DNA from: Escherichia coli
GTDB taxonomy: Bacteria; Pseudomonadota; Gammaproteobacteria; Enterobacterales; Enterobacteriaceae
Direction: 5' to 3' (one strand)
Assembly: GCF_003991155.1 (NCBI RefSeq)
Contig: NZ_CP031293.1
DNA: 64,000 nucleotides
In this document: one piece after another, positions 16,044 to 54,637 of the stretch
Numbering within the stretch: the stretch's first letter is position 1
How the letters are laid out: the number at the start of each line of letters is the position of its first letter
Position numbers and translations under genes: made by a program
The notes under the pieces: generated by a model
What the model was told of the DNA's origin: nothing
What the model saw: the letters and a program-made list of their open reading frames with translations, nothing else
The model's database searches: none

Positions 16044-16059
16044 TGCAGGGTTCGTGCCA
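16044..16059 (-). promoter_or_regulatory. sigma54 (-24/-12) promoter candidate for astC: TGGCACGAACCCTGCA
   Basis: GG-N10-GC spacing, one mismatch to TGGCAC-N5-TTGCA; about 70 nt upstream of astC; ast operon is known to be NtrC/sigma54 controlled. Confidence 0.55.
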
Positions 16060-16416
16060 GCCAGTGATAAAAGTGCATAAACGGCGGAGGCTAACTGAAA
16101 ATCAAGGAGTTATAACCACATCATATGCATTTAAAGTGCATATAAAGTGAATACGTTTGCGATGTGGGTGAATAAAAAGAATAAAAAACGCAATGTTATG
16201 CAGAAGTAAAATATAATTCTGGAATTGTGATCATTGACGAAATTTACTGGAAATTACTGCGCCATTCTGACGCAGCGCGCACCAAAAGCGGGCATTTTTT
16301 GCGCCATCGTTGACATCATTAACAACCATCGATCAAATCACTTAACAACAGGCGGTAAGCAAAGCGAAATTCTGCTACCATCCACGCACTCTTTATCTGA
16401 ATAAATGGCAGCGACT

Positions 16417-48413: not shown

Positions 48414-48446
48414 TGTTTCCTCCCAGGTATTGCACCACCGTAATGC

Positions 48447-48472
48447 AAAACAGGGCATGACGCCCTGTTTTT
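48447..48472 (-). terminator. bidirectional hairpin terminator after mipA (AAAACAGGGC-ATGAC-GCCCTGTTTT)
   Basis: Stem flanked by A-run and T-run. Confidence 0.7.
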
Positions 48473-48502: not shown

Positions 48503-49249
48503 TCAGAATTTGTAGGTGATCCCGGTAGAAATCAGGCCAGTCCAGGATTTATCCACCATTGGGCTGTCAGTAACTTCATCAGACAGACGGGTGTAGCGCG
48601 CGGTACCGTAAACACTCCAGTCGCCGAGGAAGTTGTAGCTGGCGCTCAGCTCCAGGTAAGGGCTCCAGCTGTCGTTCGGGTTATAGCCACGCAGACCGCT
48701 GCGAGCGGACTCTTTGCGCGATACGCCATAATAGTATTCGTTCTGGTTTTCGCTGTTCCACTGCACACCAATACCCGGAGTCACGGTCAGGCCGCCGTTG
48801 GTGTAACGATACAACCAGGCCATATCCCAGACAATGCCGTTGCTGTTATCCAGGGTATCGCCAGCCAGGGTGGTACGCAGGTAACCGTACTGGGTAAAGT
48901 GAGCATAAGACAGACCAGCCATCATGGTGCTCTTACGGTCATCCAGGTGACGCATTTGGTGATCGCCACTGTCTTTAGCTTTGAAGTAAAGCGGCGACCA
49001 GTAAGCGGTAATTGAAAGTTTGTCCGTTGCGTCATTCCACAGGTAGTAACCACCACCTAAGCCACGGAACCAGAAGTTATCGCCTTCATAGTTGATTACC
49101 GGTACTGGGTAAACATCGGTATCGTAATCTTTATATGGGTGTTCAACGACACCTACGCCTGCGCCCAGGGAAAATTTACCTTCAGCGTGCGCTACGCCTG
49201 CAGACGTTGCGATAAGCACTCCAAGTGCCAGAAGTTTGAGTTTGGTCAC
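48503..49249 (-). CDS. mipA: MltA-interacting outer membrane protein
   Basis: 248-aa ORF with signal peptide and C-terminal aromatic residue (TYKF), OmpV/MipA family. Confidence 0.9.
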   Translation of the reverse strand: MTKLKLLALGVLIATSAGVAHAEGKFSLGAGVGVVEHPYKDYDTDVYPVPVINYEGDNFWFRGLGGGYYLWNDATDKLSITAYWSPLYFKAKDSGDHQMRHLDDRKSTMMAGLSYAHFTQYGYLRTTLAGDTLDNSNGIVWDMAWLYRYTNGGLTVTPGIGVQWNSENQNEYYYGVSRKESARSGLRGYNPNDSWSPYLELSASYNFLGDWSVYGTARYTRLSDEVTDSPMVDKSWTGLISTGITYKF

Positions 49250-49565
49250 AATTAATCATTCCTTAAACAAATGTTTAGCGGGCGACAAAGTTTACCCGTC
49301 AATACATCGAAACCCAACCTTTTTACGTTTTCATTTTTTAAAGTAACTGTTTAATTTTCCTGACGCAGATGACACCACGCTTACAGCCAAATGAATTTAG
49401 CGTTACCGGCGACCCTATTGTTTACATTAATTATGCAAAATTTATGGATGAGTTGTTGATATGCCATTGAAATTAAGAAAGCCGTGCAGGCAAGTTTTCC
49501 ATTTGCCATCTACGCTTAATTTTGAAGGTGTATCACCGGGCACGTTGTTCTCATCGTCAATAAAA

Positions 49566-49581
49566 TGGCATGAGAGTTGCT
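49566..49581 (+). promoter_or_regulatory. sigma54 (-24/-12) promoter candidate for yeaG: TGGCATGAGAGTTGCT
   Basis: GG-N10-GC spacing; about 100 nt upstream of yeaG, a known nitrogen-starvation (NtrC) gene. Confidence 0.5.
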
Positions 49582-49684
49582 GTGTTTTAGCAAGAGACGT
49601 CGTTCAGTTTACCTCTTCCGGGAGCCTCTACTATTCATATGAACGGCTCTTAACCTGTGCTAAAAAACGAAAGGACGGCATACC

Positions 49685-51619
49685 ATGAATATATTCGATC
49701 ACTATCGCCAGCGATATGAAGCTGCCAAGGACGAAGAGTTCACACTGCAGGAGTTTCTTACCACTTGTCGGCAAGATCGCAGTGCTTATGCCAACGCGGC
49801 TGAGCGGCTATTGATGGCTATTGGTGAGCCTGTCATGGTCGATACAGCCCAGGAACCCAGACTTTCTCGACTCTTTTCTAACCGGGTCATTGCACGTTAT
49901 CCGGCGTTTGAAGAGTTTTACGGCATGGAAGACGCGATTGAACAGATTGTCTCTTATCTGAAACACGCGGCTCAGGGGCTGGAAGAGAAGAAACAAATCC
50001 TGTATCTGCTGGGGCCTGTGGGTGGGGGTAAATCATCGCTTGCTGAGCGACTGAAATCATTAATGCAGCTCGTACCGATTTATGTATTGAGCGCCAACGG
50101 TGAGCGTAGCCCGGTCAACGATCATCCGTTCTGTCTTTTCAATCCGCAGGAAGATGCGCAGATTCTGGAAAAAGAGTATGGCATTCCTCGCCGTTATCTC
50201 GGCACCATCATGTCGCCGTGGGCGGCAAAACGCCTGCATGAATTTGGTGGCGATATTACTAAGTTCCGGGTGGTAAAGGTCTGGCCGTCAATTCTGCAAC
50301 AAATTGCTATCGCCAAAACGGAACCTGGCGATGAGAACAACCAGGACATCTCAGCGCTGGTAGGGAAAGTCGATATCCGTAAACTCGAACACTACGCGCA
50401 GAACGATCCAGACGCCTACGGATATTCTGGTGCACTGTGCCGCGCCAACCAGGGGATCATGGAGTTTGTCGAGATGTTTAAAGCACCGATAAAAGTGCTG
50501 CATCCCTTGTTAACCGCCACCCAGGAAGGTAACTACAACGGGACGGAAGGTATCTCCGCCCTGCCGTTCAACGGGATTATCCTCGCCCACTCGAACGAAT
50601 CCGAATGGGTCACTTTCCGTAATAACAAAAACAACGAAGCCTTCCTCGACCGTGTTTACATCGTGAAGGTGCCGTATTGCTTGCGCATTTCCGAAGAGAT
50701 CAAAATCTACGAGAAATTGCTTAATCACAGTGAATTGACTCACGCCCCCTGCGCCCCTGGCACGCTGGAAACACTGTCACGTTTTTCCATTCTTTCGCGC
50801 CTGAAAGAGCCAGAAAACTCCAGCATTTATTCAAAGATGCGGGTTTATGATGGCGAAAGTCTGAAAGACACCGATCCCAAAGCCAAGTCGTATCAGGAAT
50901 ATCGTGACTACGCCGGTGTCGATGAAGGGATGAACGGTCTGTCGACGCGTTTTGCGTTTAAGATCCTCTCCCGCGTGTTCAACTTCGATCATGTAGAAGT
51001 GGCGGCAAACCCGGTCCATCTGTTCTACGTCCTGGAACAGCAGATCGAGCGCGAGCAGTTCCCACAAGAGCAGGCAGAACGCTATCTGGAGTTCCTGAAA
51101 GGTTATCTGATCCCGAAATATGCCGAGTTTATCGGCAAAGAGATCCAGACGGCCTACCTTGAATCCTATTCCGAATATGGGCAAAACATTTTCGACCGTT
51201 ATGTTACCTACGCGGATTTCTGGATTCAGGATCAGGAGTATCGCGATCCGGATACCGGGCAGTTGTTTGACCGCGAGTCTCTTAACGCCGAGCTGGAGAA
51301 AATCGAGAAACCGGCGGGGATCAGTAATCCAAAAGATTTCCGCAACGAGATTGTTAACTTCGTACTGCGCGCCAGAGCGAATAACAGCGGACGCAATCCG
51401 AACTGGACCAGCTATGAAAAACTGCGCACGGTTATTGAGAAGAAAATGTTCTCCAATACCGAGGAGCTGTTGCCGGTTATCTCGTTTAACGCCAAAACGT
51501 CAACCGACGAGCAGAAGAAACACGACGACTTTGTCGACCGTATGATGGAAAAAGGCTACACCCGTAAACAGGTGCGTTTACTGTGCGAATGGTATTTGCG
51601 CGTACGTAAATCGTCTTAA
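49685..51619 (+). CDS. yeaG: PrkA-family serine protein kinase
   Basis: 644-aa ORF with P-loop GPVGGGKSS. Confidence 0.9.
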   Translation: MNIFDHYRQRYEAAKDEEFTLQEFLTTCRQDRSAYANAAERLLMAIGEPVMVDTAQEPRLSRLFSNRVIARYPAFEEFYGMEDAIEQIVSYLKHAAQGLEEKKQILYLLGPVGGGKSSLAERLKSLMQLVPIYVLSANGERSPVNDHPFCLFNPQEDAQILEKEYGIPRRYLGTIMSPWAAKRLHEFGGDITKFRVVKVWPSILQQIAIAKTEPGDENNQDISALVGKVDIRKLEHYAQNDPDAYGYSGALCRANQGIMEFVEMFKAPIKVLHPLLTATQEGNYNGTEGISALPFNGIILAHSNESEWVTFRNNKNNEAFLDRVYIVKVPYCLRISEEIKIYEKLLNHSELTHAPCAPGTLETLSRFSILSRLKEPENSSIYSKMRVYDGESLKDTDPKAKSYQEYRDYAGVDEGMNGLSTRFAFKILSRVFNFDHVEVAANPVHLFYVLEQQIEREQFPQEQAERYLEFLKGYLIPKYAEFIGKEIQTAYLESYSEYGQNIFDRYVTYADFWIQDQEYRDPDTGQLFDRESLNAELEKIEKPAGISNPKDFRNEIVNFVLRARANNSGRNPNWTSYEKLRTVIEKKMFSNTEELLPVISFNAKTSTDEQKKHDDFVDRMMEKGYTRKQVRLLCEWYLRVRKSS

Positions 51620-51719: not shown

Positions 51720-53015
<1,296 letters not shown>

Positions 53016-53161: not shown

Positions 53162-54637
53162 ATGATTCGGTCAACACGTATTTCCCTGGGGTTATTCTTT
53201 AATTATTTTTTATCGTCAACGAAAATTGATCCTGGTCAAAACTATATATCTCTGCCATCAATAAAATCCAGCACTCACATTGCTCTCCTTTTTATGGCTT
53301 CTATGGGTACACAAAAATTAAAAGCTCAAGGCTTTTTAGTTTTCAGCTTATTGCTGACGTTAATTTTATTTTGCATTACTACTTTATATAACGAAAACAC
53401 GAATGTAAAACTCATCCCACAGATGAATTACCTGATGGTTGTTGTGGCTTTGTTTTTCCTTAACGCCGTCATTTTTCTTTTCATGTTAATGAAGTATTTC
53501 ACTAACAAACAAATTTTACCAACACTCATTTTAAGCCTTGCATTTTTAAGTGGCCTTATCTATTTAGTTGAAACCATTGTAATTATCCATAAACCAATCA
53601 ACGGCAGTACACTGATCCAGACAAAGTCGAATGATGTTTCTATTTTCTATATTTTCCGCCAACTCAGTTTCATTTGTTTAACCTCGCTGGCGCTCTTTTG
53701 TTATGGGAAAGACAACATCCTTGACAACAATAAGAAAAAAACTGGCATTCTGTTGCTGGCGCTGATTCCTTTTTTAGTTTTTCCCCTTCTGGCACACAAT
53801 CTGAGTAGTTATAACGCTGACTATTCTTTGTATGTCGTCGATTACTGTCCGGACAACCATACTGCGACCTGGGGAATCAACTATACAAAAATATTGGTTT
53901 GTTTGTGGGCATTTTTACTGTTCTTTATTATCATGCGTACACGATTAGCCAGCGAACTATGGCCGTTAATAGCATTATTATGTCTGGCATCGCTATGCTG
54001 CAACTTACTTCTACTGACTCTGGATGAGTATAATTACACCATCTGGTATATCAGTCGCGGGATTGAAGTTTCCAGTAAACTGTTTGTTGTGTCTTTTCTG
54101 ATTTATAACATTTTTCAGGAACTGCAACTCTCCAGCAAACTGGCAGTTCATGATGTGCTGACCAATATTTATAATCGGCGCTACTTTTTCAACAGCGTAG
54201 AGTCATTATTGTCGCGACCTGTTGTTAAGGACTTTTGTGTCATGCTGGTTGATATTAATCAGTTCAAACGCATCAATGCCCAATGGGGACATCGTGTGGG
54301 TGATAAAGTGCTGGTATCAATTGTCGATATTATCCAGCAAAGCATCCGCCCCGATGATATTTTAGCGCGACTGGAGGGTGAGGTGTTTGGCTTGCTATTT
54401 ACCGAACTCAATAGTGCCCAGGCAAAAATCATTGCGGAACGTATGCGTAAAAATGTCGAACTCCTGACCGGCTTTAGTAACAGATATGATGTTCCTGAAC
54501 AAATGACCATCAGTATTGGCACGGTTTTTTCAACGGGTGACACGCATAATATCTCGCTTGTCATGACGGAAGCAGATAAAGCCTTACGCGAAGCGAAAAG
54601 CGAGGGGGGCAACAAAGTGATTATTCATCATATTTAA
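53162..54637 (+). CDS. yeaI: membrane-anchored GGDEF-domain protein with degenerate active-site motif
   Basis: 491-aa ORF; N-terminal multi-TM region; GGDEF domain with RLEGEVF in place of RxGGDEF. Confidence 0.85.
   Translation: MIRSTRISLGLFFNYFLSSTKIDPGQNYISLPSIKSSTHIALLFMASMGTQKLKAQGFLVFSLLLTLILFCITTLYNENTNVKLIPQMNYLMVVVALFFLNAVIFLFMLMKYFTNKQILPTLILSLAFLSGLIYLVETIVIIHKPINGSTLIQTKSNDVSIFYIFRQLSFICLTSLALFCYGKDNILDNNKKKTGILLLALIPFLVFPLLAHNLSSYNADYSLYVVDYCPDNHTATWGINYTKILVCLWAFLLFFIIMRTRLASELWPLIALLCLASLCCNLLLLTLDEYNYTIWYISRGIEVSSKLFVVSFLIYNIFQELQLSSKLAVHDVLTNIYNRRYFFNSVESLLSRPVVKDFCVMLVDINQFKRINAQWGHRVGDKVLVSIVDIIQQSIRPDDILARLEGEVFGLLFTELNSAQAKIIAERMRKNVELLTGFSNRYDVPEQMTISIGTVFSTGDTHNISLVMTEADKALREAKSEGGNKVIIHHI

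Follow-up and report, generated by a model that had tools for sequence, protein, structure and literature searches.

A conserved sigma-54 promoter element upstream of the yeaGH operon of Escherichia coli

Organization of the yeaGH locus

The window referred to throughout is the whole stretch of E. coli DNA that was analysed, 64 kb in length, and the motif of interest lies within it in the intergenic region immediately upstream of yeaG (Table 1). The segment from 49250 to 49700 is 100% identical to several E. coli strains and is present in 5425 of the 5426 complete genomes. In the identical E. coli records the annotated neighbours are mipA, which is divergently oriented, and yeaG, yeaH and cdgI, and the divergent open reading frame in the window ends at position 49249. 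The yeaG product matches PF08298 (PrkA AAA, 1.3e-187) and PF06798 (PrkA C-terminal, 8.7e-71), and by these domains it is a PrkA-family AAA+/Ser-Thr protein kinase.

Table 1. Positions in the window of the yeaGH genes, their upstream features and the astC comparison sites
Feature	Coordinates	Strand	Description or basis
astC sigma-54 promoter TGGCACGAACCCTGCA	16044-16059	-	Known; site OS17 of Bonocora 2015
NtrC-like sites upstream of astC	16258-16274, 16278-16294		11/14 and 10/14 consensus matches
Conserved distal block GATGAGTTGTTGATATGCCATTGAAA	49447-49472	+	Nearly invariant in 19 genera; -145 to -120 from the predicted sigma-54 TSS
Mechanical 75-codon ORF	49461-49688	+	Spans the promoter region and contains the motif; not a gene
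Candidate sigma-S (sigma-38) extended -10 TCTACGCTTAA	49509-49519	+	Invariant block in 19 genera
Sigma-54 (RpoN) promoter element TGGCATGAGAGTTGCT	49566-49581	+	Sequence read, consensus, published ChIP, conservation
Predicted sigma-54 TSS	49592	+	Centre 49573 + 19; 49685 - 49592 = 93
5' UTR of the predicted sigma-54 transcript, 93 nt	49592-49684	+	Alignment; McQuail 2023
yeaG	49685-51619	+	644 aa, ATG start; RefSeq 'protein kinase YeaG'; first operon gene
yeaH	51732-53015	+	427 aa; DUF444 / YeaH-YhbH family, PF04285 (3.1e-191); second operon gene

A mechanically called 75-codon reading frame covers much of the upstream region and overlaps the start of yeaG, and an earlier note on this DNA, made from the sequence alone, had dismissed it as spurious. 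We agree with this assessment. When the frame is walked back from the ATGA overlap, a same-frame ORF of at least 60 codons is kept in only four of 111 orthologous loci, two of which are E. coli, and a Pfam search with the 75-residue product returned no family. Klebsiella, Pluralibacter and Phytobacter lack the ATG of the ORF, and insertions and deletions that are not multiples of three are numerous in the alignment. The ORF is unconserved and is therefore spurious, a false gene call overlying two promoters. A role as an upstream or leader peptide coupled to yeaG through the ATGA overlap was considered and ruled out on the same grounds, there being neither conservation nor a recognized family.

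The -24/-12 element

The earlier note had proposed a sigma-54-type element with GG-N10-GC spacing about 100 nt upstream of the yeaG start, and the coordinates, the strand and the spacing can all be read directly in the window. The GG is at 49567-49568 and the GC at 49579-49580 with a spacer of exactly 10 nt, and with the predicted transcription start site as reference these dinucleotides are at -25/-24 and -13/-12 respectively. The motif, TGGCATGAGAGTTGCT, is embedded in the sequence aataaaaTGGCATGAGAGTTGCTgtgtttta and has one mismatch to TGGCACGNNNNTTGCW; its GG/GC geometry in a YTGGCACG-N4-TTGCW-like context is that of a sigma-54 -24/-12 element. It is in non-coding DNA between mipA and yeaG and is co-oriented with yeaG, and 104 nt separate the end of the motif from the ATG at 49685.

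Motifs of this kind can occur by chance in a sequence of this length. The strict pattern TGGCAYN5TTGCW has a single match in the window where 0.38 are expected from shuffled sequences, and 28 of 100 shuffles contain at least one. When one mismatch to TGGCACGN4TTGCW is allowed there are three matches compared to 1.11 expected. The motif is thus statistically unremarkable on its own, and the weight of the argument is carried by its position, orientation and conservation.

There is one other sigma-54-like sequence to be noted in this part of the window. The segment TGGCACGGTTTTTTCA (54517-54532, + strand) lies inside cdgI/yeaI (ORF 53162-54637) and has one mismatch, with TTTCA in place of TTGCA at the -12 position, as in the glnH element CTGGCACGATTTTTTCA (Bonocora 2015). 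The main text of Bonocora 2015 names no sigma-54 site in yeaI, and TGGCACGGTTTTTTCA is probably either a chance occurrence or a weak intragenic site.

Published binding and expression data

Sigma-54 is reported to occupy this element in two species. The earlier note had suggested RpoN ChIP-seq as a check of the assignment, and for E. coli there is a published peak centred on the motif; Table 1 of Bonocora 2015 (PMC4591121) gives an intergenic sigma-54 ChIP-seq peak, OS18, for yeaG on the + strand, with the motif ATGGCATGAGAGTTGCT and with the peak centre and the motif centre both at 1864820. The occupancy score is modest (FAT 6), and the entry has a distance of 93 and the flag P, meaning 'predicted in EcoCyc'. 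In that study the distance runs from a predicted start, placed at the motif centre plus 19 bp, to the start of the gene. The same 17-mer is at 49565-49581 in the window with its centre at 49573, and the K-12 promoter yeaGp (b1783-b1784; EcoCyc/RegulonDB; OS18) shares this sequence, the downstream gene and the 93-nt distance. A yeaG leader construct used by McQuail 2023 extends from -93 to +63, its 5' end being at -93.

The second species is Salmonella Typhimurium, in which the identical sequence TGGCATGAGAGTTGCTTT upstream of yeaG (STM1285) was bound by sigma-54 in ChIP-chip experiments (Samuels 2013, PMC3844500). Expression of the Salmonella yeaGH genes was sigma-54-dependent to a modest extent (2.5-fold) under a promiscuous activator in the rpoS-defective strain LT2, and the dependence was masked in a plasmid reporter, in which yeaG promoter activity was equal or higher in an rpoN mutant (Samuels 2013, PMC3844500). 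An additional promoter was indicated in Salmonella, described as sigma-S-dependent or sigma-54-independent, and sigma-54-independent transcription of yeaG can dominate under some conditions.

The view in the earlier note that yeaGH is a nitrogen-starvation operon is likewise borne out by published data. NtrC ChIP-seq peak 9 is assigned to yeaGH and spans 1864821-1864901 (Brown 2014, PMC4066584), coinciding with the sigma-54 motif centred at 1864820, and the same study classes the operon as NtrC-activated from expression analysis. The yeaG mRNA rises 36-fold at nitrogen run-out (Figueira 2015, PMC4664914). In addition, Lrp ChIP identifies yeaG as a target shared by Lrp and sigma-54. No usable ChIP-exo or primer-extension data for yeaG emerged from a literature search.

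Conservation of the element

To choose orthologous loci independently of the promoter, we scanned species-representative genomes with a degenerate pattern covering yeaG codons 1 to 8. This yielded 120 Enterobacterales loci, 118 of which have enough upstream sequence. The pattern [TC]GGCAY-N5-TTGCW is present no more than 260 nt upstream of the yeaG ATG in 100 of these 118 species, mostly at 95-130 nt, whereas the chance expectation calculated from the information content of the pattern is ~5e-4 per locus. With the motif as anchor, the 100 sequences are 98-100% invariant in TGGCA and TTGC, compared to ~30-50% in the ungapped flanks.

Within E. coli the element is close to universal. The motif was placed at the centre of a 36-nt megablast query, for which an exact 28-nt word is required; every such word spans 49564-49583, and the 16-mer is therefore exact in all of the matched genomes. 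In this way TGGCATGAGAGTTGCT was found unchanged in 5406 of 5426 complete E. coli genomes. There is a common A/G polymorphism at 49559, which is 7 nt upstream of the motif and outside it. The present strain has A at this position, G being the base in most E. coli genomes, and its promoter shows no difference of substance from K-12 yeaGp.

Two types of locus were seen among those lacking the motif. First, there are six instances in which a decayed copy is present at the homologous position (L045, L047, L060, L091, L108 and L086). The changes seen in the element are small; in Pseudenterobacter the -12 TTGC is TTAC, in Pseudocitrobacter the -24 TGGCA is GGGGA, in an Erwinia metagenome-assembled genome it is CAGCA, and in Enterobacter sp. 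ENT03 the spacer has a 1-nt deletion. Four of the six decayed loci (L045, L047, L060 and L091) keep the sigma-S block and the leader described below. In our reading, a functional ancestral element was lost secondarily and independently in these cases, which suggests that Ntr control of yeaGH has disappeared from individual lineages. The second type comes from Yersinia and Hafnia. Two Yersinia loci and one Hafnia locus were aligned (L002, L089 and L051 respectively), and they share with E. coli only the Shine-Dalgarno-proximal GGACGGGCAT; their leader and upstream DNA are otherwise unrelated, and the sigma-54 element, the sigma-S block and the SdsR-site sequence are all missing. In a further Yersinia locus that was not aligned (L058) the sigma-54 motif and the sigma-S core are both absent.

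The published sigma-54 ChIP in E. coli and Salmonella together with conservation across the Enterobacterales bears out the earlier note's assignment of a sigma-54 -24/-12 element, and we conclude with high confidence that TGGCATGAGAGTTGCT is the recognition element of the known sigma-54-dependent yeaGH promoter.

A probable upstream sigma-S-type promoter and a conserved distal block

A MAFFT alignment of the intergenic region from 19 Enterobacteriaceae genera reveals three further conserved features, two of which are upstream of the sigma-54 element. The closer one is a candidate sigma-S extended -10 sequence, TCTACGCTTAA, which is within a block, ATCTACGCTT, that is invariant in all 19 genera and ends in ATCTACGCTTAAT. 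The hexamer TACGCT is at 49511-49516 with a C at -13 (49510), and AGGCAA (49488-49493), separated from the hexamer by a spacer of 17 nt, may be a weak -35. These positions point to a sigma-S start near 49523, and ~70 nt separate TCTACGCTTAA itself from the predicted sigma-54 start downstream. For sigma-S the extended -10 consensus reported by Weber et al. in 2005 is KCTAYRCTTAA, and TCTACGCTTAA, including the C at -13, fits this pattern.

The CTAYRCTT core is found in 70 of 94 loci that have the sigma-54 element, at a variable spacing from it (mostly 56-81 nt), and it is kept in some lineages without the element. Variable spacing and persistence without the sigma-54 element are to be expected of two separate promoters, in agreement with published statements (reviews; Switzer et al.; McQuail 2023) that two neighbouring promoters, one dependent on sigma-54 and the other on sigma-38, serve yeaGH. 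The sequence TCTACGCTTAA is probably the published sigma-38 promoter of yeaGH, with its coordinates assigned here from the alignment; neither coordinates for a sigma-38 promoter nor a mapped start site for yeaGH were found in the literature. A generic scan of 49150-49750 for sigma-70 promoters and terminators gave no + strand promoter and no terminator, using criteria that miss a sigma-S-type -10.

The second upstream feature is the distal block GATGAGTTGTTGATATGCCATTGAAA, which is nearly as well conserved and is also kept in lineages without the sigma-54 element. Its sequence is unlike the NtrC consensus, and the literature examined ascribes no function to it. We regard it as a candidate regulator site, either for Lrp or as a non-canonical enhancer, or as a candidate upstream element of the sigma-S promoter.

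The yeaG leader

The third feature is the leader itself, which from 49610 to 49684 is nearly invariant in the Enterobacteriaceae of the 19-genus alignment, and the conservation extends far past the 10-nt site for the small RNA SdsR. Pairing of SdsR at -31 to -22 of the yeaG leader was reported with a GFP reporter (McQuail 2023), and the site corresponds to 49654-49663 in the window; the leader also contains the Shine-Dalgarno sequence AAGGA. A 4-bp helix between GGAG (~49621-49624) and CUCU (~49646-49649) shows some compensatory changes. A riboswitch-like leader was considered and dropped, because an Rfam search of 49250-49800 at E values up to 1 found no family and the fold is no more stable than those of shuffled sequences (z = +0.56).

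The question of an NtrC enhancer

The yeaG promoter shares its -24/-12 architecture, NtrC occupancy by ChIP and induction by nitrogen starvation with glnAp2 and astC, which are canonical NtrC-activated promoters. Unlike these, it is in tandem with a sigma-S promoter, and its leader is long, conserved and the target of a small RNA. It also departs from astC upstream of the element. Promoters of the Ntr regulon are characterized by one or more sites resembling TGCACCA-N3-TGGTGCA at roughly 100-250 bp upstream. In E. coli and ~94 species the 300 nt preceding the motif were searched for this canonical site and none scored above shuffled background; the best match in 49250-49700 has 8 of 14 consensus positions. 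Counting consensus matches is a crude method, and sites of low affinity could escape it. With astC as a control the scan recovers two neighbouring sites, ~200-235 bp upstream of the sigma-54 element (Table 1), and for this reason the negative outcome at yeaG is informative. Among short inverted repeats in the intergenic region there is nothing enhancer-like.

The best match to the NtrC consensus in the whole window, TGCACCACCGTAATGCA (48431-48447; 12/14), is inside yeaE. Matches of at least 11/14 number four in the window and 2.8 in shuffled sequences. We rejected TGCACCACCGTAATGCA as a yeaG enhancer, since it lies beyond mipA at a distance of ~1.1 kb and is no more than chance would produce. 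QseF/GlrR was considered as an alternative activator and was also set aside, since the QseE/QseF paper names YeaG only as a kinase and does not refer to its promoter.

The missing consensus site does not undermine the identity of the sigma-54 element, and is a constraint only on the mechanism of activation. NtrC may act at yeaG through low-affinity sites or with assistance, or, when its concentration is high, may contact the closed complex directly from solution.

A model for expression and its alternatives

A simple model for the preferred reading, a sigma-54-dependent yeaGH promoter, is as follows. RNA polymerase carrying sigma-54 would form a stable closed complex on TGGCAT-N5-TTGCT, where its binding has been shown by the published ChIP, and under nitrogen starvation phosphorylated NtrC would remodel this complex using ATP, in keeping with the published NtrC occupancy and induction. 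Initiation is predicted from the promoter geometry to occur ~12 nt past the GC, at ~49592. This would give an mRNA with the 93-nt conserved leader, at which SdsR is reported to repress translation. A separate sigma-S-type promoter, the existence of which is published and which the alignment would place ~70 nt upstream, would provide expression in general stress and stationary phase.

The alternative that fares best leaves this model in place and would refine it. It supposes that the promoter is a genuine sigma-54 promoter whose activator is recruited non-canonically, by weak or degenerate NtrC sites, by NtrC from solution at the high levels it attains in starvation, with help from Lrp or the 49447-49472 block, or by another enhancer-binding protein. 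We consider this a tentative possibility. The enhancer scan favours it, in that the best match near yeaG is no better than shuffled sequences while the astC sites are readily recovered, as do the presence of a strongly conserved block at enhancer distance and the report of yeaG as a target of Lrp. However, the NtrC ChIP-seq peak places NtrC physically at the locus, low-affinity sites could have escaped a consensus count, and the retention of the distal block in lineages without the sigma-54 element fits a role with sigma-S instead.

A second alternative is that sigma-54 holoenzyme is bound at yeaG with little productive transcription, such that nitrogen induction is mainly due to sigma-S, through ppGpp and RpoS, and the closed complex acts chiefly as a roadblock or gate to sigma-S read-through. 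Transcripts from the inferred sigma-S start must traverse the sigma-54 element, which is ~45-70 nt further on, and there are other observations consistent with this idea; these include the Salmonella reporter activity in the rpoN mutant, the lack of a canonical NtrC enhancer, the several lineages that retain the sigma-S block without the sigma-54 element, and the finding that sigma-54 is typically bound as a transcriptionally inactive holoenzyme (Bonocora 2015, PMC4591121). However, we regard it as very unlikely. NtrC is found at the promoter by ChIP-seq and the operon is classed as NtrC-activated, the induction of yeaG occurs within ~20 min of ammonium run-out as is typical of an Ntr response (Figueira 2015, PMC4664914), yeaGH is sigma-54-dependent in Salmonella LT2 where rpoS is defective, and the -24 and -12 sequences and their spacing are strictly conserved, as a working promoter needs.

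Finally, a functionless chance match, although a single strict occurrence in 64 kb is no more than chance allows, is effectively refuted by occupancy in vivo in two species, by an invariant core and spacing in 100 species and by exact identity in 5406 E. coli genomes.

Implications

The element is thus best explained as part of a working sigma-54 promoter, and this promoter, yeaGp, is already known and is not a discovery. It was among the sigma-54 promoters in RegulonDB by 2011, and because RegulonDB/EcoCyc and two genome-wide sigma-54 binding maps contain the site, its confirmation adds nothing new to biology.

The lack of a recognizable NtrC enhancer throughout the Enterobacterales, together with the location of the element inside the leader transcribed from the sigma-S promoter, raises the question of whether yeaG is an atypical member of the Ntr regulon, with its sigma-54 promoter serving as a device for integrating two sigma factors and not as a simple Ntr promoter. 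We think this rather unlikely. If it were true, a poised sigma-54 closed complex could gate read-through by sigma-S transcription and could itself initiate only when NtrC-P reaches the very high levels of severe starvation, or when assisted by Lrp or the 49447-49472 block.

The products of yeaGH are a conserved kinase of the PrkA type and its partner. Cells need both to survive prolonged nitrogen starvation and to recover from it, and it is the sigma-54 promoter that ties the operon to the NtrC response.
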